A stretch of 64,000 nucleotides of DNA from Deltaproteobacteria bacterium (GCA_034670305.1 JAXMNT010000016.1:83615-147614), one strand, 5' to 3'. Counted from the first letter of the stretch, positions 1,631 to 63,999 are shown. Made by a program: numbers and translations. The notes: generated by a model not told the origin, from the letters alone.

Positions 1631-1690
1631 TCGGCTTCGGCGTCGGCTTCGGCTTCTGCGTCGGCTTCGGCTTCGGCGTCGGCTTCGGCT
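1631..1690 (+). repeat. Intergenic hexamer tract (TCGGCT/TCGGCG)n
   Basis: About 10 degenerate hexamers read directly. Confidence 0.9.
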
Positions 1691-1715
1691 CGCGCCGCGA
1701 CACCAGGGGACATCT

Positions 1716-4700
1716 CTACTCGGCGGGTGCGTCCGCCATCACGTCCGTCGTGGCACTCCGCCGGAATCGCTTCCCGAACCGGCGCGCGTCTTCCACCAGT
1801 CCGTACAGGACCGGCACCATCACCAAGGTCAGCACCGTCGCGACCGCCAACCCAGCGATCACGGCAACCGCCATCGGACCCCACCACGCCGCGCTCTGGC
1901 TGCCGACGATGAGCGAAAAGTTCCGGAAGTCGATCGAGACGCCCACCGCCATCGGCACGAGGCCGAGCACGGTCGTGATGGCGGTCAGGACCACGGGCCG
2001 AAAACGCGTCATGCCGGCGTTGAGCAGCGCGTCTTCGACGGACATGTCTTTCGCGCGCAGCTGCTGCACGTAGTCGAGCAGCACGATGGCGTTGTTCACC
2101 ACGATGCCCGCCAGGGAGATCACCCCCAATCCGGTCATCATGATGCCGAAGGGCGTTCCGGTGATCACCAGCCCCCAGAGCACACCCACGAGCGACAAGA
2201 TGACCGACGCCATCACGATCAGCGGCACCATGAAGCTGTTGAACTGGTAGACGAGCACGCCGAAGATCAGCGCGAGCGCGATCAAGAACGCCTGCCCGAG
2301 GAACGCACCGGTCTCGGCCTGTTCGTCGTTGCTGCCGCCAAGCTCCAGGTGGTAGCCCGCAGGCAACTCCGCCTCGTCGATGTAAGCGAGCACGGCCTCC
2401 TGCACCGCGACCGCGTTGTACCCGTCGATCACGTCGCCGGTGATGCTCACCACCAGGTCCTGATCGATGTGGTGGATGGCGCCCGCGCCGCCGACGAGTT
2501 CGTACGACGCGACGGTGGACAGCGGCACCGGGAACGTGTCTGGGCTCGTGTCTTCGCGGCCGTCGATGCGCAGGCCGAGCACCGCCTGGAGATCTTCTCG
2601 GAACTCCGGCGCGAGCTCGACCACGATGTCGTGTTCTTCTTCGCCGTCGCGCAGCGTGCTGGCTTTGGTCCCCGCGACCGCGGTGCGTACGGTGCTGGCG
2701 ACGGCGCGGGTGCTGGCCCCGACGCGTTTGGCCGCGCCGCGATCGATCCGAAGCCGCATCTCGGGTCGGCCGACGCGGTAGTCGTCGCTCATGTCGGTCG
2801 CGCCCGGGAGCGCGCCGAGCTCGCGCCGAACACGAGCGGAGAGTTCTCCGAGCGTTCGAAAATCTTCCCCGCTCACCCGCACGTCGATCGGTTTGCCGAC
2901 CGGCGGACCCATGTTCTCTTTCTCGATCCGGATCTCCGCGCCGGGGATCGCCGCGACCAGTTCCCGCAGGCGTTCGATGGTGCGGGTGGTCGGCTCCACG
3001 CGGACCCGCTGGCCCGGACGCGCGGTGTTCGCGTCCGGCAGAAAGTCCACCGTCACCCGCGCGGCGTTCGGCGCGCTCTGAGAGCCCTGCGTCGGGTCCT
3101 GGCCGCCCGAGACGCCGACCTCTGCGACGAACACATCCACGTTCTCTTGCGCGGCGAGCAAGTGTTCGATCTCGCGCACGATGTGATCGGTGGTTTCGAG
3201 ATCGGTGCCGAGCGGTGCGCGGACCGCGATGAAGGCGCGGTTCGGTTCGGTCTCCGGAAAGAACTCGACTCCGTGCTGGAGCGCCCCGTACGCCATGAAC
3301 GTGCCGACCAGGGATGCGAAGCCGATGCCGGCCGCGATCTTCCGGTGGCGGATCGACCAGGTGAGGATGGCGCGGTAGCGGCGCATGACGAAGCCGAGCT
3401 CGGCCTCCGGTGCGAAACTGACCCGGCGCTCCCGGTACGGGCCATCGCCTTCACCCTCCCCGTCCTCTGCCGGCGCGGACCCGTCGGGCCGCACGTCCTG
3501 GTCTGCGGCCGTCTTCTTCGCCGGCTTCATGAGCCGCGAGGTGAAGAAGGGGATCGCCCACAGCGCCACCGCCAACGAACAGACCAAGACGATCACGATC
3601 GTCTTCGGCATGTAGCCCATGAACTGGCCCATCATGCCGGTCCAAAAGAGCAGCGGTGCGAACGCCGCCACCGTGGTCGCGGTCGATGCCGCGACGGCGG
3701 CCGCCACTTCTTTGGTGCCTTCGATCGCAGCGGTCTTCCGGTCGGACCCGAGCTCGAGGTGGCGGTAGATGTTCTCGACGATGACGATCGCGTTGTCGAC
3801 CAACATGCCGAGCGCCATGATCAGCGCGAAGAGCACGATCATGTTGAGCGTCATACCCAGCGTTCCGATCACGATGAACGCCAGCAACATCGAGAGTGGG
3901 ATCGCGAGCGCGACGAAGAAGCTGTTCCGGAAGCCCATGAAGAACAGCAGCACGCCGATGACGAGAATGAGTCCGGTGATGATCCCGTTCTCGAGCTCGC
4001 CGATCATGTCGTAGACCATCTTCGATTGGTCGGCGAGGGTCTCGTACTCGACGCCCTCCGGCCACGAGGCGTGCCGTTCGGCGACGAGCGCCTTCACCGC
4101 CTCGGCGATGTCCACGATGTTCGCGCCGCTGCGTTTCGAGATCGCGAGCGAGACCGCGGTCTCCCCGTTCATGCGCGCGTAGCTGGTCCGGGTGGCGAAG
4201 CCGTCGACCACCCGGCCGACGTCGCGCACGAACACGGGGCGATCGCCCACGCGTTTGATCGCAACGCCTTCGATGTCGCTCGGGACCCCGAACTCGCCCG
4301 GCACCCGAAGCAAGAAGTTCGAGTCGCCGCTGCGCACGTCGCCGCCCGGCACGTTCACGTTCTCGTCCGCGATGGCGCCGATCACGTCGTTGAGCGAGAG
4401 GCCGTAGTGTTGCAGCCGGTACGGATCGATCTGGACCTGGATCTCGCGCTCTCGGCCACCGCTCAGCACCGCGTCGAGCACGCCTGGAATGCGACGCACC
4501 TCGTCTTCGAGCGACTCGCCGATCGCCTTGAGTTCGGTCTCGTCGATCGGACCACCGATCGTCACCAGCAGGATCGGGAGATCGCTGAAGTTGATCTCTC
4601 CGATCTCCGTCTCTTCGGCGTCCTCGGGCAGTTTGGGGCGCGCCCTGCCGACCCGATCGCGCACGCGCTGGAGCGCATCTTGGATGTCGACCTCGGCTTC

Positions 4701-4979
4701 GAACTCGAGGACGACCATGCTCATGCCCTCGTAGGAGGTGCTGGTCATCTTCTTGAGATCTTTGACGCCGGCAAGCTCGTTCTCGATCGGGATGGTGACG
4801 AGCGACTCGATGTCCTGAGGCGAGACGCCGATGTACGGCGTGGCCACGGTGACCATCGGGATCTGCACGTCGGGGTTCGCTTCCCGGGGCAGGTCGAAGT
4901 ACGTCAGCAGACCGAACGCGATTGTGCAGAACGTGCCGAAGAGCACGAGCGCGCCTCGGTTGACGATCCAGCCAATCAC
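1716..4979 (-). CDS. RND efflux transporter permease (AcrB/AcrD/AcrF family)
   Basis: 1087 aa; TM4 GMLVDNAIVIVENIYRH; R-FRPVVLTAITTVLGLVPMA; two large periplasmic loops. Confidence 0.95.
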   Translation of the reverse strand: MIGWIVNRGALVLFGTFCTIAFGLLTYFDLPREANPDVQIPMVTVATPYIGVSPQDIESLVTIPIENELAGVKDLKKMTSTSYEGMSMVVLEFEAEVDIQDALQRVRDRVGRARPKLPEDAEETEIGEINFSDLPILLVTIGGPIDETELKAIGESLEDEVRRIPGVLDAVLSGGREREIQVQIDPYRLQHYGLSLNDVIGAIADENVNVPGGDVRSGDSNFLLRVPGEFGVPSDIEGVAIKRVGDRPVFVRDVGRVVDGFATRTSYARMNGETAVSLAISKRSGANIVDIAEAVKALVAERHASWPEGVEYETLADQSKMVYDMIGELENGIITGLILVIGVLLFFMGFRNSFFVALAIPLSMLLAFIVIGTLGMTLNMIVLFALIMALGMLVDNAIVIVENIYRHLELGSDRKTAAIEGTKEVAAAVAASTATTVAAFAPLLFWTGMMGQFMGYMPKTIVIVLVCSLAVALWAIPFFTSRLMKPAKKTAADQDVRPDGSAPAEDGEGEGDGPYRERRVSFAPEAELGFVMRRYRAILTWSIRHRKIAAGIGFASLVGTFMAYGALQHGVEFFPETEPNRAFIAVRAPLGTDLETTDHIVREIEHLLAAQENVDVFVAEVGVSGGQDPTQGSQSAPNAARVTVDFLPDANTARPGQRVRVEPTTRTIERLRELVAAIPGAEIRIEKENMGPPVGKPIDVRVSGEDFRTLGELSARVRRELGALPGATDMSDDYRVGRPEMRLRIDRGAAKRVGASTRAVASTVRTAVAGTKASTLRDGEEEHDIVVELAPEFREDLQAVLGLRIDGREDTSPDTFPVPLSTVASYELVGGAGAIHHIDQDLVVSITGDVIDGYNAVAVQEAVLAYIDEAELPAGYHLELGGSNDEQAETGAFLGQAFLIALALIFGVLVYQFNSFMVPLIVMASVILSLVGVLWGLVITGTPFGIMMTGLGVISLAGIVVNNAIVLLDYVQQLRAKDMSVEDALLNAGMTRFRPVVLTAITTVLGLVPMAVGVSIDFRNFSLIVGSQSAAWWGPMAVAVIAGLAVATVLTLVMVPVLYGLVEDARRFGKRFRRSATTDVMADAPAE

Positions 4980-6208
4980 TCTGCGACCTCAGCGGCCGGC
5001 GCCGGGGCGGGCGCTTGGGCGACCTCACCTGGCGCGGTGTAGACCACCCGGCCTGCCGTGCAGCAGCGGCCGCGGCGCGCGACCAAGAGCGCGTCGCCGT
5101 CCTGGAGCTCGCGGTGCCCAGTGACCACGATCTCGGTGCCCGCTTCGAGTCCCGAAGCGATCACCACTTGGTCCCGCACCACCGAGCCGACTTCCACCGG
5201 CTGCCAGCGGGCCACATCGTTGTCGATCCGGAACACGCCGTTGCCGTCGACCCGCGTGACCAGCATGTACTGGGGGATCACCACTTGCTGCTCGCCGGCG
5301 TCCGTCTCGATCTCGACGTTGGCGATCATGCCGGGAAGCAACCGCCGGTTCGCGTTCGCGACTTCGATCTCGACTTCGAACGCGCGGGTCTCGACCCGCG
5401 CGGCCGGGCTGATGCGCCGCACGTGTCCGGCGACCGCTTCGCCGAGTGCGGGCGCGCGAACCACGGCCGGCAGCCCGGGCCGAAGTGCGACCACGTCTCG
5501 GTCGGGCACCGCGAGGGTGACGAGCACCGGGTCGAGCTGGATGAGCCGTGCGAGCGGCTGGCCGGGGGCCATCACCTCGCCGCGCTCGACATTCAGGGTG
5601 GCGATGGTGCCGGCGAACGGCGCGCGCACCGTGGCACGGCCGGCCATCACCTGGGCGGTCCGCACAGCGGCGCGCGCTGCGGCCACCCGAGTGCGCGCCG
5701 CGTCGATCGACTGTTCCGAGATCGAACCAACGAGCCGCTCGGCGCGCTCCAGTTCGTGCTGTGCGGCGTCGAGTTCCACCCGCATCTGACCGAGCCGCGC
5801 GCCCTGAGTCGCGGAGTCGACCCGCGCGATGACCTGGTTCGCCCGGACGTCCTCGCCCTCTTCGACCAAGACCGCTTCGACGAACCCGCCGAGCGACGCT
5901 GCGAGCAGTGCGTCGCGCGAGCCGGCGACTTCGCCCGGCAAGACGACGCGCAGGGCCGTTGCGCTGGCCGAGACCACCGCGGCTTCGACCCGCGTGGCCC
6001 CCGGCGCCGGCGGCTCCGCCTGGACCCTGGGTTCCTCGGTGGGTTCGGCCTCAGCGCTGCCTCCGCACGCGAGAAGACAGCAACCCAAAAGCGCGATGTT
6101 GGGCCAACGGAACGCGAGCGCCCCAAGCGGGAGCCCTCCGTTCGGAACCCGCGAAGCCGTGGTCGCCCCCCCGAGCGATCGTGCGACAATTGAAATGAGG
6201 GACATCAT
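4976..6208 (-). CDS. RND membrane fusion protein (periplasmic adaptor)
   Basis: Lipoyl/hairpin motifs VEEGEDVRANQVIARVD and TVRAPFAGTI; lipobox-like LLAC; ATG at 6208 overlaps the TetR stop; true start may lie further downstream. Confidence 0.9.
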   Translation of the reverse strand: MMSLISIVARSLGGATTASRVPNGGLPLGALAFRWPNIALLGCCLLACGGSAEAEPTEEPRVQAEPPAPGATRVEAAVVSASATALRVVLPGEVAGSRDALLAASLGGFVEAVLVEEGEDVRANQVIARVDSATQGARLGQMRVELDAAQHELERAERLVGSISEQSIDAARTRVAAARAAVRTAQVMAGRATVRAPFAGTIATLNVERGEVMAPGQPLARLIQLDPVLVTLAVPDRDVVALRPGLPAVVRAPALGEAVAGHVRRISPAARVETRAFEVEIEVANANRRLLPGMIANVEIETDAGEQQVVIPQYMLVTRVDGNGVFRIDNDVARWQPVEVGSVVRDQVVIASGLEAGTEIVVTGHRELQDGDALLVARRGRCCTAGRVVYTAPGEVAQAPAPAPAAEVAE

Positions 6209-6810
6209 CGAGGACTGACTCCGTGAAAGAAGAGGGACAGAAGACGTTCGGGGAGATCGGCCGGTGGCGGGTGGCCGTGCAGCCAAAGTTGAAGGCGTTG
6301 ATCGACCATGCCGCTGAGTGCGTATGCGGCATCGACGAGGTCGACGCTTGAAGAGATCTCGCCGCGCGAGACCCCGAGTTGGAGCAATGAGCGCATCCGC
6401 TCCTGGTGATGGGTCCGAAGGGAGTCGAAGTCGAACTCGGGCTGGTCGGGTTCGGGTCGAAGTTCGGCCCGCATGAGCAGGCTCATCCCAGTCGGCGCCG
6501 ACTCGAGTCGCTCGAAGAACGCACACAACCCGTCGTGCAAGCGATCCCAGGCGCTGACACCGGCCGATGCCTGCTCCGCCATCTCGAGGATCCGCCCCAG
6601 CGCGTCCGTCTCGTGGCGGATCGCCGCGACGAACAACGCTTCTTTGTTTCCGAAGTGGTAGTAGAGCGCCGGTTTGGTACAGCCGGCCGCCTCCGCGACC
6701 TCTCGAACGCTCGTCGCACTCCAGCCCCGCTCGGCGAAAAGCCGGGTGGCTTGGAGAAGAATCCGGTCCCGCGTCGGGGACGGTGCGGCGCCAGCGGTGA
6801 GGGAGGTCAT
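6205..6810 (-). CDS. TetR/AcrR family transcriptional regulator
   Basis: TRDRILLQATRLFAERGWSATSVREVAEAAGCTKPALYYHFGNKEAL HTH. Confidence 0.95.
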   Translation of the reverse strand: MTSLTAGAAPSPTRDRILLQATRLFAERGWSATSVREVAEAAGCTKPALYYHFGNKEALFVAAIRHETDALGRILEMAEQASAGVSAWDRLHDGLCAFFERLESAPTGMSLLMRAELRPEPDQPEFDFDSLRTHHQERMRSLLQLGVSRGEISSSVDLVDAAYALSGMVDQRLQLWLHGHPPPADLPERLLSLFFHGVSPR

Positions 6811-6813
6811 GCA

Positions 6814-6831
6814 ACTTACCGATCGGTAGGT
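6814..6831. promoter_or_regulatory. Probable TetR operator (autoregulatory)
   Basis: ACT-TACCGATCGGTA-GGT; perfect 12-bp core palindrome at 6817-6828, a few nt upstream of the tetR ATG. Confidence 0.75.
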
Positions 6832-7114
6832 CGGCTACTTTGACACGCAGTGGCGACCTGTCCACGAACGGGTACCGCAGCCCTGAGACATTCTTGGCTC
6901 GCTCGCTTCGCGAGACGGGTGGCGTGTCCGGGCGCGTACGTGAGAACTCTCTGGTGATTCCCCTCACGCTGGGAGCTTGGTGAAATCGGCGAATCGTCCT
7001 GGTTTCATTGGGATGGGGTCAGTCGAACCCGCCGGCCATCCCAGGTGGCGGCCACACTGGCCGCCGTCCTGTGACACTACGCATGATCGTTGGGGTTTGG
7101 TTGGCGTACAGGAG

Positions 7115-7131
7115 TCGGCACAGGGGCTGCA
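7115..7131 (+). promoter_or_regulatory. Putative sigma54 (-24/-12) promoter
   Basis: TCGGCACAGGGGCTGCA fits GG-N10-GC (consensus TGGCAC-N5-TTGCW), about 80 nt upstream of the 7209 start. Confidence 0.5.
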
Positions 7132-7208
7132 TGTAGGACAACGCAGCACATGCCAGCGGGTCCGAGAGACTGCTGGCCAAGGCCCGGGATGGCCGACGGA
7201 GCAAACGG

Positions 7209-9215: not shown

Positions 9216-9301
9216 TTTTCCTCTCAAGACCTGGTCGCCAACCACACACACCACGGTGGGCGGGTCCGAGAGAGCTTGTCTTAACACACATCCACACACC
9301 C

Positions 9302-9326
9302 GAAGCCGCCCCCCCTGGGCGGCTTC
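9302..9326. terminator. Stem-loop, possible terminator
   Basis: GAAGCCGCCC-CCCCT-GGGCGGCTTC, 10-bp stem downstream of the 7209-9215 gene; weak U-tract. Confidence 0.5.
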
Positions 9327-9371
9327 ACTAATTGTACGGCACTACCGGGCTCGAGACTGGTGGCCCCCTCC

Positions 9372-9544
9372 GATTTCGGATTTCGGATTTCGGCGTCGGC
9401 TTCGGCGTCGGCTTCGGATTCGGCGATCGGCTTCGGCTTCGGCTCCGGCTTCGGCTTCGGCGTCGGCGTCGGCCTCGGCATCGGCTTCGGCTTCCGCTTC
9501 CGCTTCCGCTTCCGCTTCCGTTCCGCTTCCGCTTCCCGCTTCCG
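9372..9544 (+). repeat. Intergenic repeat tract (ATTTCGG)3-(TCGGCN)n-(TCCGCT)n
   Basis: Read directly. Confidence 0.9.
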
Positions 9545-9585
9545 TCCGCGTGCACTCACTCCGCTTGCCCGCATACTGGCGGCCG

Positions 9586-10818: not shown

Positions 10819-10843
10819 AGGGCCGAGGGCGAGGGCGACGCGT

Positions 10844-10970
10844 AAGCCGAAGCCGAAGCCGAAGCTGATCCCCGATCACCGAAGCCGAAGCCGAAGCCGA
10901 TCCCGAAGCCGTCCTCGACGCCGAAGCCGAAGGCGATCCCGATCCTCGAAGCCCAAACACCGATCCCCGA
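10844..10970 (-). repeat. Intergenic hexamer tract (AGCCGA)n on +, i.e. TCGGCT on -
   Basis: Lies between convergent tyrS and ihfB. Confidence 0.85.
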
Positions 10971-10987
10971 AGGAAGCGGTTCTCTGA

Positions 10988-14915: not shown

Positions 14916-14942
14916 AACGTCCGAGCCCACAGTGAAGAAAAT

Positions 14943-14963: not shown

Positions 14964-15000
14964 TCTTCGTTGGTGCGGCCGTTTGCCGAGGCTCAGCGTT

Positions 15001-15128
15001 CTGCCGCCGTCCCTGCCGCTGACTCTGCCGCTGCCGCTGACTCTGCCGCTGCCGCTGTCTCTGCAGCTGCAGCTGCCGCTGCCGCTGTCTCTGCCGCTGC
15101 CGCTGCCGCTGTCCCTGCCGCTGTCTCT
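15001..15128 (+). repeat. Intergenic hexamer tract (CTGCCG/CTGTCT/CTGACT)n
   Basis: Read directly. Confidence 0.9.
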
Positions 15129-15134
15129 GGCGAC

Positions 15135-17880: not shown

Positions 17881-18012
17881 TCGGCTTCGAAGTCGGCTGA
17901 GGTGTCGGCTGAGGCGTCGGCTTCGGAGTCGGCTTCGGAGTCGGCTTCGGCTTCGGAGTCGGCTTCGGCTTCGGAGACGAGGCGTCGGCTGAGGCGTCGG
18001 CGGTCGGCGTCG
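17881..18012 (+). repeat. Intergenic hexamer tract (TCGGCT/TCGGAG)n
   Basis: Read directly, downstream of nuoI. Confidence 0.85.
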
Positions 18013-18065
18013 GACTCAACGGAGGCCGCAGCCCCCTCAATCCGATTCGCGCCGCGCGAATCGGA

Positions 18066-28786: not shown

Positions 28787-28945
28787 GTCGGCTTCGGCGT
28801 CGGCATCGGCGTCGGCGTCGGCTTCGGCGTCGGCATCGGCTTCGGCGTCGGCATCGGCTTCGGCTTCGGCATCGGCGTCGGCTTCGGTTTCGGCGTCGGC
28901 TTCGGCTTCGGCTTCGGCGTCGGCTCCGGCTTCAGCGTCGCTTCA
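28787..28945 (+). repeat. Intergenic hexamer tract (TCGGCN)n
   Basis: About 25 units between the convergent kinase and pepP. Confidence 0.92.
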
Positions 28946-30860: not shown

Positions 30861-31065
30861 GTGGCAGTGGCGGCGGCAGTGGCGGTGGCAGCGACAGTGG
30901 CAGTGGCGGTGGCAGTGGCAGCGACAGCGACAGTGGCAGCGACAGCGACAGTGGCAGTGGCAGCGGCGGTGGCGGCGGCAGTGGCAGTGGCAGTGGCAGT
31001 GGCAGCGGCGGTGGCGGCGGCAGCGGCACCGGCACCGGCAGCGGCACCGGCACCGGCAGCGACAG
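30861..31065 (+). repeat. Intergenic hexamer tract (GGCAGT/GGCGGT/GACAGC/GGCACC)n
   Basis: Reverse-complement class of the 15001 tract; lies between divergent genes. Confidence 0.9.
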
Positions 31066-31126
31066 CAGGCTGGGGCCGGCATCCGTCCCTGGCCATCCTT
31101 GGTCCGACCCGCTACGTCCACTTGGA

Positions 31127-32545: not shown

Positions 32546-32616
32546 CGGCGTCGGTTTCGGCGTCGGCTTCGGCATCGGCATCGGCTTCGGCATCGGCTTC
32601 GGCATCGGCTTCGGCG
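32546..32616 (+). repeat. Intergenic hexamer tract (TCGGCT/TCGGCA)n abutting the four-helix-bundle stop codon
   Basis: Tract ends immediately at the CTA (minus-strand TAG) at 32617. Confidence 0.92.
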
Positions 32617-32928: not shown

Positions 32929-32969
32929 CGAGAACCTGCCTTGTGTACGCCGAGCGTGAACTCGCCCGA

Positions 32970-33099
32970 GGGCGCGCAGCGCCCCCAGTGGTCGGCGGGG
33001 GGGCGGGTCAAGGACGAGCAAGCGCGAAGCGCGCCAGCGAAGCGGTGGGCTTCCCGCCGGGCCGAAGGCCTCCTTGAGGCGCCGCCCCCGCCGACCGCT
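32970..33099 (+). other. Branched palindromic element with GNA-triloop mini-hairpins (REP/MITE-like)
   Basis: 15-bp outer stem 32987-33001/33085-33099, inner stem TCAAGGA/TCCTTGA, hairpins GCGC-GAA-GCGC, GC-GAA-GC, GGCC-GAA-GGCC, GGGCGC-GCA-GCGCCC. Confidence 0.7.
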
Positions 33100-33169
33100 A
33101 CGCTGGACCATCCATCGGGCCTCCATCCACCAACGAGGTGGGGATGTTCCGCACCGGAAGAGACGCGTT

Positions 33170-35354: not shown

Positions 35355-35482
35355 GGGTACAGAATGGGTCCGCCACGGGGCACTGTCCAATCCGATCGCA
35401 GGGGTCACGGTCCAGGATACGCCGGCTGGGTCCGGGTTCCCCCTGGTTCGTCGGGGGTCGGCAGAACCGCGCATCCTCTCCT

Positions 35483-35880
<398 letters not shown>

Positions 35881-35888
35881 GCCCGTTT

Positions 35889-39606: not shown

Positions 39607-39906
39607 GGTGCTGGCTGTGGGAATCGCAGGTGCTGGCCGTGGGAGTCGCAGTGCTGGCCTCGGGAATCGCAGGTGCTGGTCCCGGGAATCGCAAGGGTCG
39701 GGATCGGAGTCGGGGTCGGCTTCGGCTTCGGAGTCGGGGTCGGCTTCGGGGTCGGCTTCGGGGTCGGAGTCGGCTTCGGCGTCGGCTTCGGCGTCGGCGT
39801 CGGCTTCGGCTTCGGAATCGGCTTCGGAATCGGCTTCGGAATCGGAATCGGAATCGGAATCGCTTCGGCTTCGGAATCGGGGTCGGCTTCGGAGACGGAA
39901 TCGGCT
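39607..39906 (+). repeat. Composite tract: ~22-bp unit GGTGCTGGC-TGT-GGGAATCGCA x4, then (TCGGCT/TCGGGG/TCGGAA)n
   Basis: Read directly, between divergent proC and tetR. Confidence 0.85.
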
Positions 39907-39962
39907 GCGGAGTGCCCGGCATGGCAGGTGCTGGCTGATCGCAGGGCAGTGCGAAAATCGGC

Positions 39963-42274: not shown

Positions 42275-42412
42275 TCGGCATCGGCACCGGCTTCGGCTTC
42301 GGGCTTCGGGCTTCGCCATCGGCACCGCCATCGGCTTCGGCACCCGCTTCGGCTTCGGCATCGGCTTCGGCATCGGCTTCGGCATCGGCTTCGGCATCGG
42401 CTTCGGCTTCGG
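42275..42412 (+). repeat. Intergenic hexamer tract (TCGGCT/TCGGCA)n
   Basis: Lies between the convergent oxidoreductase and HNH genes. Confidence 0.9.
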
Positions 42413-48711: not shown

Positions 48712-48762
48712 CTCGCGGGCGCGATCGGACGAAAAACCGCCCGGATTCGGGGAATCGGCGTC

Positions 48763-48965
48763 GAATCGGATTCGGTGTCGGATTGGATTCGGCGTCGGCT
48801 GCGGCGTCGCCCGCGGCCTCGGCGTCGGCTTCGGCGTCGGCTTCGGCGTCGGCTTCGGCGTCGGCTTCGGCTTCGGCTTCGGCTTCGGCTTCGGCGTCGA
48901 GTTCGGCTTCGGCTTCGGATTCGGATTCGGCTGCGGCTTCAGCGTCGGCTTCCGCTTCCGCTTCC
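48763..48965 (+). repeat. Intergenic hexamer tract (TCGGCN/TCGGAT)n ending in TCCGCT
   Basis: Lies between convergent recD2 and the serine hydrolase. Confidence 0.92.
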
Positions 48966-53486: not shown

Positions 53487-55499
53487 ATGAACTCGAGCTT
53501 CCGCGGACGCGTCTTCGCTTCGTTCCACGCCACCGTCGCCCTCAGCTTGTTGTTGGCGGCCTCGGCGGGCACCGCCCACGCACAGGACCCGGTGCCGGTA
53601 CAGCGCTTCAGCGCCAACCGTTTCGCGCCCGCGCCCGGACCCGGAAACTACCTCCAGGTCGATGGCGCGCACCTGCTCGGGCACCTCTCGCCCGGCGCCG
53701 GCCTGACGATCGACTACGCGCACGAGCCCTTGGTGCTCTACGACGCCTCCTGCACCGACGCGACCGAGACCAACTGCGATGTGGAAGGGACCCACACCGA
53801 GTTCGTCTCCTACATGCTCCAGTTCAACCTCTATGGCTCGCTCGTACTCTGGGATCGAGTGCAGATCGGCCTGAACCTTCCGCTGCTGCTCAGCAACGGC
53901 GACGACTTCAACGAGACCGTGCGCGGCATGCCCGTCTCCGTGCCGGGCGGTTCTCGGTTCGCGGTGGGAGACCCCTCCTTGAGCGCCAAGGTGCGGCTCT
54001 ACGGCGACGGCGAAGGCATCGCCGTGGCGGCGTCGGTGTACGGAACGTTTCCGGTCGCGAACGCGATGCAGGGCGAAGGCTTCCTCGGAGACGAGAGCCT
54101 CCGGGTCGGCGGCCATCTGATCGCCGAGTTCATTCAGAGCGGGTTTCACCTCGCGTTCAACGTGGGTGGTTTCTACCGGCCGGAGCGCACCTTCCTCTCG
54201 AACCGCGCCGGCTCCCAGATCACCTACCGCATGGGCGTCGGCTACGACGTGACACCGCTCGTCTTCCTCTTCGGTGAAGTCGACGGCGCGAGCGGACTGA
54301 GCTCGGACGTGGACGAACATCCGCTCGAAGGCCGCCTCGGCGCGCGCCTTCGGCAGGGCGACCTGACCTTCACCCTCGCCGGCGGCGCCGGCATCGTGTC
54401 CGGCGTCGGAACCCCGGTCTTCCGGGTGATCGGCGGGCTCGCGTACGCGCCGCAACGCGGGGACCGAGACGGCGACCACATCGACGACAGCGACGACGCC
54501 TGCCCGACCGACGCCGAAGACATGGACGGCTGGGAAGACGAAGACGGCTGTCCCGAGGCCGACAACGACAACGACGGCATCCTGGACGCGGACGACCCTT
54601 GTCCCACCGAAGCCGAGGACATGGACGGGTTCGAGGACGAGGACGGCTGCCCGGACACCGACAACGACGGCGACGGAGTCCGTGACGGCTTCGACTCGTG
54701 CCCGAACGAGGCCGAGGACATGGACGGCGACCGCGACGAAGACGGCTGCCCGGACGACGACACCGACCGCGACGGGATCGACGACGCAAACGACGCGTGT
54801 CCGAACGAACCCGAGGACATCGATGGCTTCGGCGACGAAGACGGCTGCCCGGAAGACGACTTCGATGGCGACGGCATCCCCGACGACGCGGACGAGTGCC
54901 CGGACCAACCGGAGTTGATCAACGGCATCAACGACACCGACGGATGCCCGGAAGAGGACGCCGACGGCGACGGCGTGCCGGACGACGTAGACCGCTGTCC
55001 GAACGAGCCGGAGACGCTCAACGGACGCGCGGACGACGACGGGTGTCCGGACGGCGAGACGCTGGTCGAACAGCGCGAAGGACGCATCGTCCTGCTGCAT
55101 CAGATCCAGTTCGCCAACAACCGGGCCCGCATTCGGGGCGCGCGCTCCCAGCAGATCTTGGCGGCGGTCGCGGCCATCATGTCCCGCAACCCCCAGTACC
55201 GGAAGGTCCGCATCGAAGGCCACACCGACAGTGCAGGCCGCGAGGACCGCAACGTGCGTCTCTCCCAGGAACGCGCGGAAGCGGTGCTCGCTGCCCTGGT
55301 GCGGATCGGGGTGGCGGCGGAACGCATGGAAGCGGTGGGTCACGGACCTCATCGCCCCATCGCCGACAACGGGACGCCCGAGGGCCGAGCCGCCAACCGG
55401 CGGGTCGAGTTCCACATCGAAGGCGGCCCGGCGAGTGGTCAGCAGATCACGACCGAACAAGGCGTCGCCCACCCGCCCGCCGAAGCGCCCGCGGAGTAA
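53487..55499 (+). CDS. Outer-membrane beta-barrel + thrombospondin type 3 repeats + OmpA domain (TraB-like architecture)
   Basis: Signal peptide AHA; beta-strand region; six ~33-aa D.D.DG..D..D.CP...DGCP units; IEGHTD, LSQERAEAV, RAANRRVEF. Confidence 0.9.
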   Translation: MNSSFRGRVFASFHATVALSLLLAASAGTAHAQDPVPVQRFSANRFAPAPGPGNYLQVDGAHLLGHLSPGAGLTIDYAHEPLVLYDASCTDATETNCDVEGTHTEFVSYMLQFNLYGSLVLWDRVQIGLNLPLLLSNGDDFNETVRGMPVSVPGGSRFAVGDPSLSAKVRLYGDGEGIAVAASVYGTFPVANAMQGEGFLGDESLRVGGHLIAEFIQSGFHLAFNVGGFYRPERTFLSNRAGSQITYRMGVGYDVTPLVFLFGEVDGASGLSSDVDEHPLEGRLGARLRQGDLTFTLAGGAGIVSGVGTPVFRVIGGLAYAPQRGDRDGDHIDDSDDACPTDAEDMDGWEDEDGCPEADNDNDGILDADDPCPTEAEDMDGFEDEDGCPDTDNDGDGVRDGFDSCPNEAEDMDGDRDEDGCPDDDTDRDGIDDANDACPNEPEDIDGFGDEDGCPEDDFDGDGIPDDADECPDQPELINGINDTDGCPEEDADGDGVPDDVDRCPNEPETLNGRADDDGCPDGETLVEQREGRIVLLHQIQFANNRARIRGARSQQILAAVAAIMSRNPQYRKVRIEGHTDSAGREDRNVRLSQERAEAVLAALVRIGVAAERMEAVGHGPHRPIADNGTPEGRAANRRVEFHIEGGPASGQQITTEQGVAHPPAEAPAE

Positions 55500-55517
55500 T
55501 CGGCGACGCGCGTGACC

Positions 55518-55623: not shown

Positions 55624-55674
55624 AGTGGAAGTAAGAAAGTTGACCAACGCGCTGGCCCCGGGCTGTATCGGGGC

Positions 55675-56340: not shown

Positions 56341-56371
56341 ACGGTGGTCCGCAGCGTCTCCGCTGCGCTGC

Positions 56372-58513
56372 TCACTCCGACGTTTCGGAAGACTCCGGCG
56401 GGTCGCCATCGGGCATCGGCGTGCCTCCGCGTGGGGTGTTCTTCCTGGCGGGCGGCGGTTCGCTCGGCTCCGGACTCGGCGCGCGCGGCGGCTTCGGGAC
56501 CACCGGCGCTTCGGGCGGGCTCGCGGTTTCTCCGGTTCCGGGGGGCGCGGGCGGCTGAGAACGCTCGGCTTCCTTCTCGGCAGCCTTCTCGGCCTTCTCA
56601 GCGGCCTTCTCGGCGGCCCGCTCCAGGCGGCGCTCGGCGAGGATCATGATCTGGGGGGAGGTCGAACCGAAGAACACGCCCCGCGTCGCCATCTGACCGC
56701 TGACCTCTGCCACCCGGAAACCACTGTTGTGAAGCAGCTTGCCGAGCTCGTGCAACGGGTAGAGCCGAAGCGTGTACACGTTCTCGTTCTGGCGACCGTC
56801 GTCCAAGATGACGGTGCGCTTCACCTCGAGCCGTGAGGTGATGTAGTTGAACTTCGACTCTTCCATGCACACGCAGCCATCGCCCTCGAACCAGATCAGG
56901 TTCGGCTGCTGGGCGATGACGTGGTCTCGGTTGACGACGTCGAGCAAGAGGCGGCCCTTCGGACGCAGTGCATGCACGAGCTGCTGGACGACCTTGCGGT
57001 TCGTCTCGTCGTCGAAGTAGCCGAACGTGGTGCCCCAGCAGAGCACCGCGTCGAAGCTTCCTTCGAACGTCATCTCGCGAATGTCGCCGTGGAGGAAGTT
57101 GATCTTCAGGCCGAGGTCCTGCGCCTCGTCGCTCGCCCGGCTCAACATCGCCAGGCTCAGATCCACACCGACGACCAGGTATCCGCGGCGCGTCAGTTCA
57201 ATCGCGTGGTGACCGAGCCCGCAGCCGACATCCAGAATGGTCGCGCCGGGTGGGAGCGCGAGACACGACTCGATGAAGTCCACCTCGTGGCGCACCACTT
57301 TGGGCGTGGGCGGCCGCACCGTGCGAAGGTAATCGTCGCTGAAGAAGGCCTCGAACCAGGGGCGACGTCGCCGCTTGGGCGCGACGGGCTCCGGCAAGGG
57401 CTCCGCCGGGGCTTCGGCTTCCGGAGGAGGAGGCGGCTTGGAGGGCTTCTGCTTGGGACCCTCGCCGACGGTCTCGATCTCTTCTGCGTCGAGATCCAGT
57501 TCTTCCGCGTCGTCGTCGTCGTCTTCGTCGATCTCGTCGAGTTCGATCTCTTCGCTCGGCGCATCGGGCGGAAACTCCGCCGCCGCGCGTTCCAGATCGG
57601 AGATGTCGAGTTCGTCGGAGCTCGGTTCGCCGGTGTCCACGAGCCCGACATCGTCGGTCGCGTGCGGCGCACTCACGCGGACGAGCCCACGGACGACCAC
57701 GGTCTGGGAGACCGGCACGATGGGCGCCATCACATCCACGAGCGTGCGTTCGGGTGCGAGCGCCTCGGGCTCCGGCGTCGCCTCGTCGATTGAGGCCGGT
57801 TCCACAGAATCCTCGGCACCGGCACCGGCCCCAGCGTCGGAACCGGCATCGGCATCGGCACCGGCATCGGCATCGGCACCGGCTTCGGCTTCGGAATCGG
57901 CACCGGCTTCGGCACCGGCATCGGCATCGGCTTCGGCACCGGCTTCGGCATCGGCGTCGGCTTCCGCTTCGGCTTCGGTGTCGGCTTCCGCTTCGGCTTC
58001 GGTGTCGGCTTCGGCGTCGGCTTCGACCTCGACTTTGGCCTCCGCTTCAGCCTCCACTTCGGCTTCGTCGGGTTCCGGATCGAGCTCCAGCTCCTCGATC
58101 TCGTCGGCGCCAAACTCGGCGGTGTCCAGCTCCACCGACGCGAGGTCCGCCGCCGTTTCCTGAAGTGCCTCGCGCGCCGCGAGGAGTTCTTCTGCCGCCT
58201 CGAGGCTCAACGCCTCGACCTGCTCGGTGGCGTCCGGGTCCGGTGCTGCCACAGGGGCGGCCGGCGGCATGGGGGGCGGCGCGACCGAGGGAGGCCGCGG
58301 CGGCGCCACCGAAGCGGCCGCCTTCTTGGGCGGTGGTGGCGTGGCCGCCGGCATCTCCACGGTGGCGCCCCCGAGCCCCTCTGGATCGAACCCATCGGAT
58401 GGGGCCGGAGCGACCGCGCTGCGCCGCGGAACTTCGTCGACGGGGACCCGGAGCGCTCGGCGCTTCCGGCGCCGCGGGCTGAGCGAGACGCTGTCGTCGT
58501 CTTCGTCGCTCAC
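56372..58513 (-). CDS. Class I SAM-dependent methyltransferase with long acidic disordered N-terminus
   Basis: [41 protein letters not shown] overlap with psd. Confidence 0.88.
57813..58070 (+). repeat. Hexamer tract (TCGGCN/CCGGCA/TCCGCT)n inside the methyltransferase CDS
   Basis: Same units as the intergenic tracts; encodes EA/DA/GA dipeptides on the minus strand. Confidence 0.85.
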
Positions 58514-59370
58514 CGGTCGCTCCCGTCTTGAACCGCGTCGCCCATGCGGACGGTGGCTCCTGGTTGCACCAAGAACGGCAGGGGACGTTCGACGAACACG
58601 ATGGCCGTGGAGCCGAGATGGAAGGTGCCGAGCTCGTCGCCTCGGTCCATCGGCGGCCCCTCGTTCCCGTAGCGGCGGGTGCCGTGCTGCCGGCCGTCGT
58701 TGGTCACGACGTCGTCGAAACAGACACTGATGCGCCCGACCCCGATCGCACCGACCATGATGGTGGTGACCAGGCCGTGCTGTTCGCTCGCCTGGGTGAT
58801 GGAGACCCGCTCGTTCACGGCAAACAACGAGGGGACGTGTTCGAGCCCGATGGAGTTCACCGGAAAGAGGGTTCCGGGCACGTGCCGCATCTCGATGACC
58901 GGCCCAGCGACGGGGGCATGGACGCGGTGGTAGTCCCGCGGGGACAGGTAGACGATGAAGTACGCGCCGCCCTGGTACGCATGGAATGCCTCCTGGGTGT
59001 CCGAACCGCCCAGCAGTTCCGCGACGTCGTAGGGGCGGCCCTTCACCTGAATCATGCCGCCCCCGTCGATGGGGCCGAGGTCCTCGAGCCGGCCGTCTGC
59101 GGGCGACACCAGGCTGGTCGGGCTCCCGTCGATCGGACGGGCCCCTGGCTTGAGCTGCCGGGTGAAGAACTCGTTGAACGTCTTGTACCCGCCGCTCGGC
59201 ACGATGGCCTCGTGAAGGTCGACGTCGTAGATGCGGGCAAAGGTCTGCACCGCTTGATCGACGAACGCACTCGGCGCGCGGACGGAGGCCACCCTCCCCA
59301 TTGCTCTACTGAGCTGCTTTCGGGGCAAGAGCCGCAGCGTGTCCGCGGTGAGACGGGCGGGGTCGAGCAT
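58510..59370 (-). CDS. psd: Phosphatidylserine decarboxylase proenzyme
   Basis: FNEFFTR.LK, SPADG, YLSPRDYHRVH.P, NER, F.LGST cleavage motif. Confidence 0.95.
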   Translation of the reverse strand: MLDPARLTADTLRLLPRKQLSRAMGRVASVRAPSAFVDQAVQTFARIYDVDLHEAIVPSGGYKTFNEFFTRQLKPGARPIDGSPTSLVSPADGRLEDLGPIDGGGMIQVKGRPYDVAELLGGSDTQEAFHAYQGGAYFIVYLSPRDYHRVHAPVAGPVIEMRHVPGTLFPVNSIGLEHVPSLFAVNERVSITQASEQHGLVTTIMVGAIGVGRISVCFDDVVTNDGRQHGTRRYGNEGPPMDRGDELGTFHLGSTAIVFVERPLPFLVQPGATVRMGDAVQDGSDR

Positions 59371-59619
59371 GGCTGGGTGTTGGTGGCTGCCGGGACTGGG
59401 GAGACCCAGCGGAAAGAGAAGCTCCACCCCTCAAAAACACGAACAATTTCCACAATCGAACCGGGCGGATGCGGACCGCGATGCTAATCGACCGACGGGG
59501 ACCCGCACAAGCAAGGTTTCGGTTTCGTTCGCTTTCTTTCTCACCCGAGTCACCGCCCAAAAACGAAACGAGCCACCCCGCGTGCAGGGTGACTCGCCGT
59601 TCCTCGAACGTTCTTTGGA

Positions 59620-61041
59620 CTAGATCGCGAAGTACATTTCGTACTCGAGCGGGGTCGGACGCAGCCGGAACGGGGCCACTTCCTGCTCGCGCTTGTACGA
59701 AACCCACTCCTCGAGCACGTCCTTCGTGAAGACATCGCCCTTGAGCAGGAACTCGTGGTCCTCCTCGAGGCAACGCAGCGACTCTTCGAGGTCGCCGGGG
59801 ACGACCGGCACACCCTTGAGCTCTTCCGGGCTCAACGAGTACAGATCCTTGTCGAACGGGTCGCCCGGATCGATCTTGTTCTGGACCCCGTCCAGACCGG
59901 CCATCATCAGCGCCGTGAACGCCAGGTACGGGTTGCACGAGGGGTCCGGGAAGCGGGCTTCGATCCGCTTGGCCTTGGGCGACTGCGAGTAGGTCGGGAT
60001 GCGGATCGAGGCGGACCGGTTGCGGGAGCTGTAAGCCAAGTTCACCGGCGCTTCGTACCCGGGCACCAGACGGCGGTACGAGTTGATCGTCGGGTTCGTC
60101 AGCGCCGTCAGCGCGCGCGCGTGCTTCAGGATGCCGCCGATGTAGTGAAGCGCCATCTCACTCAGACCCGCGTAGCCGTCGCCGGCGAAGAGCGGCTTGC
60201 CGTCCTTCCAGAGCGACTGGTGCACGTGCATGCCGTTGCCGTTGTCGTGGTAGATGGGCTTCGGCATGAACGTGGCGACCTTGCCAGCCTGCCGAGCGAC
60301 GTTCTTGACCACGTACTTGAACCACATCAGCTGGTCCGACATCGTCAACAGGTCGTCGAAGCGCATGTCGATCTCACACTGACCGGCGGTCGCGACCTCG
60401 TGGTGGCTGACCTCCACTTCGTAGCCGAGCTCGGTCAGGATTTGGCACATGTCGGTGCGCATATCCATGAGCGTGTCGGTCGGCATGACTGGGAAGTAGC
60501 CGCCCTTGTGCGGGATCTTGTAGCCGAGCGGGTTGTCGTCCGAGTCCGTGTTCCAGGCGGCTTCGTCCGAGTCGACCTCGTAGAAGGCGGCGTTCGGCTG
60601 CGAGCCGAAGCGGACCGAGTCGAAGACGAAGAACTCGGCTTCGGGCCCGACGTAGCAGGTGTCGGCGATGCCGGTCTGCTTGAGGTAGGCCTCGCCCTTG
60701 CGCGCGATGTAGCGCGGGTCGCGACCGTAGGGTTCGCGGGTGATCGGGTCGACGATGTCGCACGCCATCACGATCGTCGGGTGCTTCGTGAACGGGTCCA
60801 TCTTGGCCGAGGACGCATCCGGAAGGATGAGCATGTCGCTCGCGTTGATCGGCTGGAACCCCCGAATGGAGGAACCGTCGAAGCCGAAACCGTCTTCGAA
60901 GGCCGACTCGTCCAAGCGGTGCGCCGGGACGCTCGTGTGCTGCCAGACGCCGACGAGATCGATGAAGCGCAGGTCGACCATGACCGCGCCCTTCGCCTTC
61001 GCCAGATCGACTGCGTCCTTGGGTGTTTCGATGTCGCTCAT
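59620..61041 (-). CDS. glnA: Glutamine synthetase type I
   Basis: [42 protein letters not shown], adenylylation-site-like DLY. Confidence 0.98.
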
Positions 61042-61156
61042 GGATGGGCTCGCTTTCCGGCGCCGGAGCGCCTCGTACTACTTTTCACGCCGCTGGGCGC
61101 TGTGGGGAATGGGGTTCAGTTCGGGGAGGCGCTGGCCTAGGGGGCGCAGCACGGGT

Positions 61157-61853
<697 letters not shown>

Positions 61854-61855
61854 AT

Positions 61856-63511
61856 TTACTCGTCGGGGCGGCGGCGGTTGAGGAAGAACATGAGGGCGGT
61901 GTGGGCGAAGGTGTAGGTCAGGCCTACGCCGAGCAGGACGCTGCCCATCCAGCGCTGTCGAGCGCTGAGCAACATGGCGCCCCCGATCACACAGGAGCCG
62001 ACCACGATGCCGCTGAAGATGCGGCGCCCGATCAGATCCGCCGCGTCGCGGGTGCTCGGATCCCGGGTCTGCACCCGGAACGCGCCCTTGCGAAGGTCTT
62101 CCAGGATCTCCTGGAGTTGCAGCGGGGCTTCCGAGGCCGCGGCGCTCAAGCGCATGATGCCGCGGATGACGTCCTGCGTGATGCGCTCGGGCGAGTAGCG
62201 CTGCTGGATGAGGCGCAGAAAGAAGGGGCGGACCTCTTGGAACACATCGAGTTCCGGGTAGATCTCTTTGCCCACGCCCTCGACCGTCATGAGCGCTTTG
62301 CCCATCATCAGAAACCCGCCGGGCACCTCCACCGAGTAGCGCCGCGCGCCGTCGATGAGATCGCGGAGCAGACCACTGAGCTCGATCTCGCCGAGCTTCT
62401 TGCCGAGGTACTTCTGCGAGAGGATTGCGACCTCTGCTTCGAACGCCTGTCGATCAACCTTCTTGGTCGGTCGCCCGATCGCCCAGAGCGCATCCGCGAT
62501 GCCTCGGTAGTCCTCGCGTACCGCCGCGACCATCAAGTCGATCGTTCGGTCGCGCAGCTGAGGCGTGAGGTGACCGACCAGACCAAGATCGATCATGCCG
62601 ATGATCGGCGCGTCCGGCGTGCCGAGAATGAACACGTTGCCCGGGTGGGGATCGGCGTGGAAGAAGCCGTCTTCGAAGATCTGCTGGATCATCACGTCGA
62701 TCGCGGTCTTCGCGATCTTCTCGCCCGTGAAACCCTGCTCGGCGGCCGCGTCGATCTTCGGCCCGCCGATGAACTCGAGGGTGAGCACCCGCCGGCTGCT
62801 CGCTTGGCGGTAGACCTTCGGGAACTTCACGTAGCGCTTGCGCTCGAAGTTGCGCGCGAACCGTTCGGCGTTGTCCGCCTCCTGGACGTAGTCGAGCTCC
62901 GCGGTGACCGCGCGGTCGAACTCGCCAACCATCTTCACCGGGTTGTAGAGACGCGCTTCAGGAATCGACCGTTCGACCGCATGGGCGAGCCAGTAGAGCA
63001 GGTCGAGGTCGGCCTCCATGGTGCGGCGCACGTGCGGCCGCTGCACTTTGACCACGACGTCCATCGCGCCTTCGTCGGTCTTGAGCTTCGCGCGGTGCAC
63101 CTGTCCGACCGACGCGGACGCGAGCGGGATCTCTTGGAAGTCGTCGAAGATGACGTCGATCGGCGCGCCGAGTTCTTGCTCGATCACCGGCCGAATCTTC
63201 TCGAAGTCCTCGGGCGGCACATCGTCTTGCAGCTTCTTGAGCTCTTCGATGATGTCCGCCGGAATGATGTCCGGCCGGGTGCTCACGATCTGTCCGAGCT
63301 TCACGAAGCTCGGACCGAGATCTTGGAGAACGAGGCGGATCCGTTCACCGACCCGAACTTCGGGCACTTCCTTCTTCTTGCGCCCCGGCACGAGCGACCC
63401 GAGCCCCGTGCGCCGCACCACCTCGCCGAACCCGTGTTTGACGAGCACGCCAACGATCTGACGCAACCGTTCGAGGTCCTTGACGGTGTTGAGAATGCTG
63501 GGCCCGGCCAT
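61856..63511 (-). CDS. AarF/ABC1/UbiB kinase family protein
   Basis: [51 protein letters not shown]. Confidence 0.93.
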
Positions 63512-63619
63512 CGGCGCGCAGCATACCGTGGCCGACGTCGAAGCGAAGCGGCGATCGGAACCGGGCCTTCCCTGGATCGTTCCGAAGCAGAGTCCGAGGC
63601 CGATGCTGAGGCGGTGCGC

Positions 63620-63916
63620 TGAAGCTGGGTGCTGAAGCTGTCGCTGTCTGGTTCTGAAGCTGTCGCTGGTTCTGAAGCTGTGGCTGGTTCTGAAGCTGTC
63701 GCTGGTTCTGAAGCTGTGGCTGGTTCTGAAGCTGTCGCTGGTTCTGAAGCTGTGGCTGGTTCTGAAGCTGTCGCTGGTTCTGAAGCTGTGGCTGGTTCTG
63801 AAGCTGTCGCTGTCGCTCTCCCTGTCGCTGGTTCTGCAGCTAATTCTGTCGCTGGCTCCGAAGCTGGTTCTGAAGCAGCCTGCCCCTTGCCCCTGCCCTT
63901 GCCTTTGCCCTTGCCC
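63620..63916 (+). repeat. Tandem 18-mer GGTTCTGAAGCTGT(C/G)GCT x9 plus a (TTGCCC)n tract
   Basis: Units at 63650-63811 alternate C/G strictly; TTGCCC-type hexamers at about 63880-63916. Confidence 0.95.
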
Positions 63917-63921
63917 GCGGA

Positions 63922-63999
63922 TCAGCGGTCAGATCGCTTGATCAGCGCGACGAGCATCGCGACGACCTGCTCGAGGTGGGCGAGAGCCCGTTCGATATC
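63922..63999 (-). CDS. C-terminal fragment of a probable second four helix bundle protein (runs off the window end)
   Basis: Hand translation DIERALAHLEQVVAMLVALIKRSDR*; parallels ...YDLADHVCAMLFKLSRG* of 32617-32928. Confidence 0.55.
   Translation of the reverse strand, partial: DIERALAHLEQVVAMLVALIKRSDR

Follow-up and report, generated by a model that had tools for sequence, protein, structure and literature searches.

Four-helix-bundle (4HB) proteins of the TIGR02436/PF05635 family form a large group in bacteria and archaea and are homologous to Avd, a protein of diversity-generating retroelements (DGRs). To our knowledge, the family has no known function, and we know of no catalytic motif in the 4HB protein. 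Here we describe two such genes, and the hexanucleotide arrays that accompany them, in a 64,000-nucleotide stretch of a myxobacterial genome of the Deltaproteobacteria (GCA_034670305.1; G000:C16:83615-147614, hereafter the window), the right edge of which coincides with a contig end. With a probability of roughly 0.6, arrays and 4HB genes are parts of selfish elements that come in two forms and in which the arrays would be the recognition sites of the 4HB protein. Form 1 (4HB subfamily D) is an IS5-family insertion sequence of ~1.72 kb, which carries a 4HB gene and whose deletion derivatives are present in hundreds. Form 2 comprises small units of three further subfamilies (A-C), in which 4HB gene and tract are physically associated and for which a selfish origin is presumed.

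The closest described systems are the intervening sequences (IVSs) of 23S rRNA and the IS5 family. In Coxiella and Leptospira, the IVS contains an S23p open reading frame (ORF), which encodes a PF05635 protein and lies between inverted arms, an arrangement also seen here. The excerpted text of PMC4990558 reports strain-variable tandem heptamers just upstream of the Coxiella S23p ORF, dates the suspicion of IVS mobility to 1993 with no mobility mechanism known, and presents the hypothesis that IVSs are remnants of transposition or mobile elements with a mobility-aiding ORF. Transposase-bearing IVSs occur in Nostoc and Deinococcus, in the available portion of PMC2672173 without 4HB genes. Furthermore, 18 23S_rRNA_IVP genes are placed in cas loci in the excerpted part of PMC3936711, and the same domain appears in a figure of CRISPR-associated domains in that of PMC10910872. 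Unlike the IVSs, the two units of the window lie between protein-coding genes and not in rRNA; in one clade, the 4HB gene has a transposase partner; repeats extend over hundreds of bases, mostly without the gene; and units A-C have direct flanks. A literature search, supplements lying outside it, returned no description of 4HB genes with hexamer-array flanks or an IS5 partner and no paper on intergenic hexanucleotide repeats in myxobacteria. New here are the autonomous IS5-family form, its TAG-stop target, the deletion series and the subfamily-specific long tracts.

Insertion of IS5-group elements typically comes with duplication of a 4-bp YTAR target. Form 1 is like the IS5 family in its NF033581 DDE transposase, imperfect inverted termini, CTAG on both flanks, many copies and internally deleted derivatives, and unlike it in the addition of a divergent 4HB gene, ~40-nt hairpin ends and arrays of about five hexamers. 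Full-length relatives of the transposase are 344-aa IS5-family proteins on contigs of ~1.2-2.0 kb, and 80 such loci were fetched. Complete elements are present at L113:15-1732 and L112:387-2101, where the order is CTAG, hairpin, (CCCTTG)5, 4HB gene (minus strand), transposase (plus strand), (GGGCAA)5, hairpin, CTAG, so that both copies have the inverted termini and the two flanking CTAGs of an IS5 element. Each end is a hairpin-forming terminal repeat followed by the hexamers. The termini are sharp, with CAGGTCGCTGAA... and its imperfect inverse, and with CAGG[TC][CT]GCTGAA... on both sides. The element-borne 4HB gene is intact in both copies (117 aa, 78-79 bits on TIGR02436). The transposase (L113:551-1582, 344 aa) scores 261 bits on NF033581, for which the cut-off is 140, and is a DDE transposase of the IS5 family.

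The 4HB gene is present in 12/80 of the IS5 loci, always upstream of the transposase and divergent from it. Among the 36 evaluable IS5 relatives, a hexamer block of at least four units follows the transposase in 10/10 that carry the 4HB gene and in 0/26 that do not; a control position inside the transposase gene scored a block in 1/80. The IS5-family element carries its 4HB gene in cis with hexamer-array ends, and the gene-less IS5 relatives have no arrays. The existence of an IS5-type class with a 4HB gene suggests how the 4HB family spreads.

In the genome of the window, the element is represented mostly by its ends. BLAST of the D unit finds the ends in ~150-360 copies and the middle in only 12-50, and what looks like a leader in the D unit is the transposase 3' end in reverse complement. 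Matches to DDE_Tnp_1 amount to only three C-terminal fragments, two of them where a contig begins and the third next to a D-type 4HB remnant. Downstream of each come ~100 nt, a (GGGCAA) block, a hairpin and CTAG, and the fragments are up to 98% identical to the 344-aa relatives. A PF05598 search of the same genome gave 0 matches. One end, followed through 133 copies, is long in ~5, runs into internal deletions with diverse breakpoints in ~45 and comprises only the first ~150 nt in 58. Several breakpoint classes recur at 4-9 loci each, and many of the ~150-nt copies are cut by contig ends. There are also 28 two-ended copies of 174-672 nt, which are similar to miniature inverted-repeat transposable elements in that the termini are kept, the transposase is absent and many sites are occupied.

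Genes were called with a home-made codon-usage caller trained on the genome (5951 genes, 88% coding), because raw ORF lists are uninformative at 68% G+C. CTAG precedes 215 of the 302 element termini found genome-wide, and 126 termini directly abut the stop codon of a neighbouring gene. Genes beside the short (CCCTTG)/(GGGCAA) blocks (G-blocks) end with TAG in 204/295 cases, compared to 29% of all genes. Judged from these junctions, the element inserts at CTAG, often at the TAG stop of a gene, leaving the gene intact; the duplication of CTAG is putative. The TAG share of 29% among called stops itself appears unusually high for a genome of 68% G+C, and insertion of the element at CTAG may contribute to it.

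In this assembly, there is no inward-facing pair of termini more than 700 nt apart. The contig ends stop inside the element, ~100-200 nt from either of its ends, in 151/210 cases and the interior is nearly absent; therefore ~75 long copies are probably missing from the assembly. A single element is thus behind 72% of the contig breaks. The right end of the window aligns at 95% to positions 34-159 of the complete element, which are its left end. Window positions 63879-64000 are the left end of one element copy, and 63922-64000 probably belongs to the element-borne 4HB gene. The ORF left there has 25 aa, is too short for a hidden Markov model (HMM) and matched 0 families. Its stop codon lies 5 nt from the (CCCTTG) block, and across the ORF end and the repeat block its DNA does not differ from that of the D-type copy C15:131712 (70.7 bits on TIGR02436). 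The first-pass annotation of the window, made from sequence alone, had named this ORF as a probable second 4HB gene, and its DNA identity to copies that pass the HMM supports this for an ORF that is itself unscorable. The same annotation saw neither a reverse transcriptase (RT) nor a transposase; a DGR-type RT is indeed absent, but an IS5-family transposase exists just past the contig end, in DNA that the assembly lacks. Its proposal that tract and 4HB gene form a unit, possibly mobile, holds as far as the unit is concerned, with mobility supported for type D and association alone for types A-C. Its single class of tracts has to be split into short fixed blocks, which are the inverted ends of the insertion sequence, and long variable tracts, which flank subfamilies A-C. 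The 18-mer unit CTGGTTCTGAAGCTGTCG of the long tract next to the element end resembles, by eye, an arm of the terminal hairpin (GTTCT..GAAGC), and this tract may have been born by tandem amplification of an element end. Coordinates are collected in Table 1.

Table 1. Features of the window and retron genes elsewhere in the genome (TRF, Tandem Repeats Finder)
Feature	Position	Strand or setting	Evidence or remark
(CGGCTT)n tract	1627-1690	between two minus-strand genes	TRF
(GATTTCG)3 + (TTCGGC)24 tract	9372-9535	14 nt ahead of next gene	TRF
(AAGCCG)15 tract	10844-10936	convergent gap	TRF
(CTGCCGCTGACTCTGCCG)6 tract	15000-15129	convergent gap, 5 nt from end of right gene	TRF
(TCGGCT/TCGGAG)n + (GGCGTC)n tract	17881-18013	intergenic	TRF
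(TCGGCT)26 tract	28788-28944	fills convergent gap; public contigs break at both edges	TRF
(GGCAGC/GTGGCA)34 tract	30861-31066	hexamer class seen upstream of type A 4HB genes	TRF
(CGGCTT)11.7 tract	32546-32615	(AAGCCG)n on the strand of the 4HB gene	begins 1 nt past stop codon
4HB gene, subfamily C, 103 aa	32617-32928	minus	TIGR02436 42.6 bits, PF05635 42.4 bits
Non-coding leader of type C unit	32929-33125	minus	multi-hairpin element 33008-33077 closed by TCAAGGA/TCCTTGA
402-nt composite tract, (TCGGCGTCGGCT)23 then (GCTCCC)17	35481-35882	public contigs break at both edges	TRF
22-mer x4 (39607-39693), then (TCGGCG/TCGGAG/TCGGCT)n tract (39704-39913)	39607-39913	divergent gap	TRF
(TCGGCT)23 tract	42275-42412	fills convergent gap	TRF
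(TCGGCT)33 tract	48751-48964	convergent gap	TRF
(CCGAAG)38 tract	61613-61852	3 nt from end of next gene	TRF
(CTGGTTCTGAAGCTGTCG)10.8 tract	63648-63876	in place of outer half of the terminal hairpin of the insertion sequence	TRF
(GGGCAA)5 block	63879-63916	minus	subterminal hexamer array, left end of IS5-family element
Last 25 codons and stop of D-type 4HB gene	63922-64000	minus	cut by contig end inside repeated element
Retron type XIII RT genes	C23:86418-87011, C10:168437-169069, C67:18832-19467		PADLOC RT_XIII, 504-517 bits

The 4HB genes were scored with the family profiles TIGR02436 (cut-off 24 bits) and PF05635 (cut-off 33.8 bits). The genome contains 49 TIGR02436 matches, which fall into four subfamilies by their C-terminus and 3' flank, and each subfamily has its own hexamer type at fixed distances from the ORF. 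In type A, ~300 nt lie between the end of an upstream AGCGGC/AACAGC-type tract and the profile match, and a hairpin and (CGGCTT)n follow the stop codon. Type B has CCGCTT-type tracts and type C has AAGCCG/ATGCCG/ACGCCG-type tracts on both flanks. The type D gene follows a fixed (CCCTTG)5 block and precedes the complement of that block, (GGGCAA)5. The flanking tracts are direct, not inverted, in units B and C, and are of two unrelated types in A. A Form 2 unit is ~550 nt long. It opens with a variable hexamer tract and a strongly conserved, structured leader of ~230 nt; after the ORF come a terminator-like hairpin and, in many units, another tract.

The type C gene of the window passes both profiles and falls in clade C of the 4HB tree, and its protein matches the sequence of 2gsc (XCC0516, a pentameric structure) with an E-value of 7e-6. 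The first reading of this locus as a 4HB gene with its stop codon against a tract was correct; the gap is a single nucleotide. The downstream tract is present in this copy and the upstream tract is missing, unlike in most copies. A tract of at least 40 nt starts within 60 nt of the stop codon in 19/45 4HB genes, compared to 549/5951 of all genes (odds ratio 7.2, p 6e-9), and 28/42 4HB genes have a tract within 400 nt upstream, compared to ~7% of all genes (within 300 nt of the start). The 4HB genes are thus enriched beside tracts beyond what the tract density accounts for. A quick tree of 79 proteins gives each paralogue clade its own hexamer type, with 39 label changes against a shuffled mean of 55.7; it leaves unsettled whether the AAGCCG-flanked clades of this genome (G000) and of G012, a genome of another genus, are sisters.

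Paralogues of subfamilies A-C differ by a synonymous divergence (dS) of 0.44-0.70 at a ratio of nonsynonymous to synonymous divergence (dN/dS) of 0.11-0.13; they are old, and the ratio indicates purifying selection. The 4HB proteins are basic, with isoelectric points of 8.5-9.4. Conservation of the ~230-nt leader of units A-C is above that of synonymous sites. Its multi-hairpin element is closed by TCAAGGR/YCCTTGA in 29/36 A-C units, and a second hairpin varies in sequence with the pairing kept by compensatory variants. The leader had no match below an E-value of 0.67 in Rfam, and the motif TCAAGGR...YCCTTGA had 0 matches in the loci of relatives L001-L025. At G000:C77:1-520, a ~190-nt (AAGCCG)n tract is fused straight to a 5'-truncated D-type 4HB gene, as though the tract had arisen at a broken element end or taken its place.

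The same association is seen in relatives, with other hexamers. 4HB genes are common in the bacterial family of the window's genome. Perfect (TCGGCT)5 runs, counted in 31 genomes, are frequent only here (429, with 79 in G012 and 4 in G004). Of 25 4HB loci from four other genera, 23 have tandem repeats of a genome-specific unit, located ~200-350 nt ahead of a single 4HB gene or a pair. Gene-less copies of these units are scattered through the genomes as well: a degenerate pattern matches 783 times in G002, compared to 11 times for its reversed control, and 308 vs 0 times in G030. In G012, which is closed as a single contig, 4/12 (TCGGCT)n sites have a 4HB gene at a distance of 400 nt or less. 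In relatives (L002, L003, L005, L008-L020; G012, G013, G002, G030), the 4HB genes often form convergent pairs of paralogues 2-90 nt apart, each gene with its own upstream repeat type, and the two outer tracts of the G002 pairs are direct repeats on the chromosome.

A cross-phylum set of 80 loci was fetched with a D-type query. In the 82 kb that extend up to 400 nt from the 4HB genes, it contains 95 period-6 tracts (at 55/80 loci), compared to 25 in the other 464 kb. Scored as inverted complements, the two flanks exceed the 95th percentile of mismatched locus pairs at 35/71 loci, where 3.5 are expected, and the 99th percentile at 26/71. G3N2-4 runs are found downstream on the sense strand at 20/71 loci and upstream on the antisense strand at 22/71, whereas distal controls have 3/283 on each strand. 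At locus L066, the same succession of CTAG, hairpin and array forms the ends of an element that lacks a transposase.

If arrays and 4HB genes are indeed parts of selfish elements, the hexamer arrays could be cis-sites recognised by a 4HB oligomer, given that the solved relatives are pentamers and the blocks have about five units, and the 4HB protein would be an accessory or regulatory factor of its element. As microsatellites, the arrays would grow and shrink by slippage and unequal exchange and outlast the gene, and this persistence would produce the gene-less majority of tracts, which the first-pass annotation had taken for binding sites or remnants and which may be either. A more specific proposal, offered only tentatively, is that a ring-shaped 4HB pentamer reads arrays of about five hexamers at the element ends and thereby pairs the ends or controls the transposase. 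Each subfamily would then have co-evolved with its own hexamer, the gene-less arrays would be amplified platforms, perhaps co-opted by the host, and the rRNA IVSs would be tolerated, IS-derived foldback cassettes. An array reader would be the first function for the very large TIGR02436/PF05635 family, including the relatives of Avd and the ORFs of rRNA IVSs. Eukaryotic foldback transposons have terminal inverted repeats made of short tandem repeats; the likeness is architectural only, and the domain of life and the transposase differ.

Several observations weigh against selfish elements as the source of all tracts. Over 90% of the long tracts lack a 4HB gene, a conserved boundary and a strand rule. 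Units A-C have no terminal inverted repeats or detectable target duplication, and their gene-less derivatives produce no excess of BLAST coverage at the unit ends. All D-type 4HB genes assembled here are N-terminally truncated mosaics, and the intact element is found only in related metagenome contigs. The split of 10/10 and 0/26 among IS5 relatives largely tracks transposase relatedness and does not represent 36 independent events, near-copies inflate the label clustering in the 79-protein tree, the deep nodes of which lack resolution, and the role of the 4HB protein as an array reader is itself presumptive. Long tracts lie within 60 nt of a G-block in 154/661 cases (null ~67). Their junctions have no excess of YTAR (40/391 vs 858/5942), and the genes beside them have a modest excess of TAG/TAA stops (odds ratio 1.66), so that IS5 insertion of this kind does not by itself explain the long tracts. 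An IS5-type target at the long tracts was rejected on the YTAR count. Where a long tract and a G-block adjoin, the preferred order is (CGGCTT)n, (GGGCAA)n, hairpin, with 38 cases vs 6 on the opposite strand.

The long tracts could instead be ordinary hexanucleotide microsatellites, grown in situ by slippage in non-essential 3' intergenic DNA, with the 4HB elements merely sharing permissive sites. This is possible, although we consider it the less probable account. Tandem Repeats Finder reports 1375 period-6 rows genome-wide, and merging gave 1870 tracts whose period is divisible by 6. Of these, 1137 are intergenic and account for 136 kb (14%) of the intergenic DNA, which totals 961 kb; 702 period-6n tracts lie inside called genes. 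Two unit classes dominate, TCGGCT (430 rows, 75 kb) and CCCTTG/GGGCAA (406 rows, ~36 nt each), and the arrays span 33-596 nt. Like prokaryotic simple sequence repeats and variable-number tandem repeats, they have tandem 6-nt units, vary in length between loci and have slipped-hairpin potential, their U/T-rich strand forming stable slipped hairpins, and the higher-order periodicity at 12, 18 and 24 nt is what unequal exchange typically produces. The gene-less majority without conserved borders or strand rule, the missing YTAR excess and the recurrence of the same hexamers, in frame, in a coding linker (57813-58067) also fit growth in situ. Unlike such repeats, the tracts make up 14% of the intergenic DNA, have a genome-specific unit and are physically linked to one gene family. 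Growth in situ leaves unexplained the subfamily-specific hexamer at a fixed distance from the ORF, the genome-specific units common to 4HB flanks and orphan tracts (G002, G030, G012), the mirrored inverted arrays around 4HB genes across phyla and the split among IS5 relatives. An artefact of assembling low-complexity sequence is the least probable account of all. Contigs from four public short-read runs, all of one study and perhaps of the source sample itself, stop at every tract edge, none bridges a tract, and 17/210 contig ends of the assembly lie in or beside a tract; but the public contigs enter the tracts for 20-30 nt from both unique flanks with 0 differences, and similar tracts are present in the closed G012 and in many independent assemblies. 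Tract lengths are given as assembled, the public contigs providing no independent reading of length or polymorphism.

Function at the RNA level is improbable. Here, the arms would pair into a stem around the 4HB ORF, as in the 23S rRNA IVS, for cutting by RNase III or for stabilisation or termination of the transcript, and the orphan tracts would be 3'-end RNA elements of their neighbours. The inverted, mirrored arms in 35/71 cross-phylum loci and in the insertion sequence suit this idea, and RNase III cuts IVS stems according to the excerpted text of PMC4990558. The tracts also have a 3' bias: they occur in 218/876 convergent gaps, compared to ~10% of tandem and 75/984 of divergent gaps, and a tract lies within 20 nt of the stop codon of 331 genes and of the start codon of 28. 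Furthermore, (UCGGCU)n RNA is highly structured, with a folding energy of -58 kcal/mol per 120 nt (tract 28788-28944 and others of the TCGGCT type). However, (AGCCGA)n folds at -14.8 kcal/mol, well below shuffles in structure (z +5.2), and both orientations follow stop codons (167 vs 123) with no strand rule; therefore a single RNA-level function of the tracts is unlikely. The direct flanks of B and C and the two unrelated types of A are also at odds with an RNA stem. A replication-direction model was rejected, as orientation has no regional pattern: neighbouring tracts agree in 238/515 cases (null 259 +/- 11), and GC skew correlates with orientation only at r = -0.12.

Repeats made or used by an RT, with the 4HB protein acting as Avd does in a DGR or within a telomerase-like repeat adder, are very improbable. 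The 4HB protein is like Avd in its predicted homologous fold, pentameric relatives (cd16375; the 2gsc match) and basic character, and PF05635 and Avd are treated as homologous (4DWL vs 2GSC) in the excerpted part of PMC10053308. Genome-specific units would also fit templated synthesis. Yet the genome has only three RT genes, all of retron type XIII and none adjoining a 4HB gene or tract class (template and variable repeats lay outside the search). Unlike Avd, the 4HB protein is seen with a DDE transposase, which is what the complete element encodes, and the analogy to Avd and DGRs that the first-pass annotation had drawn fails for the mechanism. An RT origin was rejected. On C67, the retron RT and a type C 4HB gene are ~5 kb apart.

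In being tied, as hundreds of short structured repeats at gene 3' ends, to one small protein family, the tracts are similar to repetitive extragenic palindromes (REPs) or bacterial interspersed mosaic elements and their REP-associated tyrosine transposases (RAYTs). The REP/RAYT system is unlike the tracts in that the 11 Y1 genes here belong to a separate IS200/IS605-like element and have few tracts within 600 nt. A Y1/RAYT driver of the tracts was rejected on these grounds. The Y1 element itself occupies 11 loci (e.g. C20:45721-46002, C31:83470-83760), encodes a transposase of 233-249 aa and has a ~190-nt conserved downstream flank, of which ~25 copies were found without association to tracts.

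All 14 intergenic hexamer tracts listed for the window by the first-pass annotation were recovered by Tandem Repeats Finder, all lie between called genes (14/14), and most occupy nearly the whole gap. A 15th tract, absent from that list, lies at 57813-58067 (minus strand), in frame inside the ORF 56372-58513 (minus strand), where it specifies an acidic (AEAEAD)n linker; the linker belongs to the disordered N-terminal region of the 713-aa protein. By eye, we take the C-terminal part of this protein to be similar to S-adenosylmethionine methyltransferases (motif ILDVGCGLG). With 15 tracts in 64 kb, the window has ~2.5x the genome average (725 tracts of at least 40 nt in 7.93 Mb). Other repeats of the window are coding. 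The ORF 53487-55499 (plus strand) contains five 99-nt repeats (54468-55051) of GAC/GGC codons, which encode Asp/Gly-rich 33-aa repeats and are unrelated to the intergenic tracts, and a 42-nt repeat is present in 3.4 copies of 95% identity at 1124-1282, inside the called ORF 1078-1566 (minus strand).

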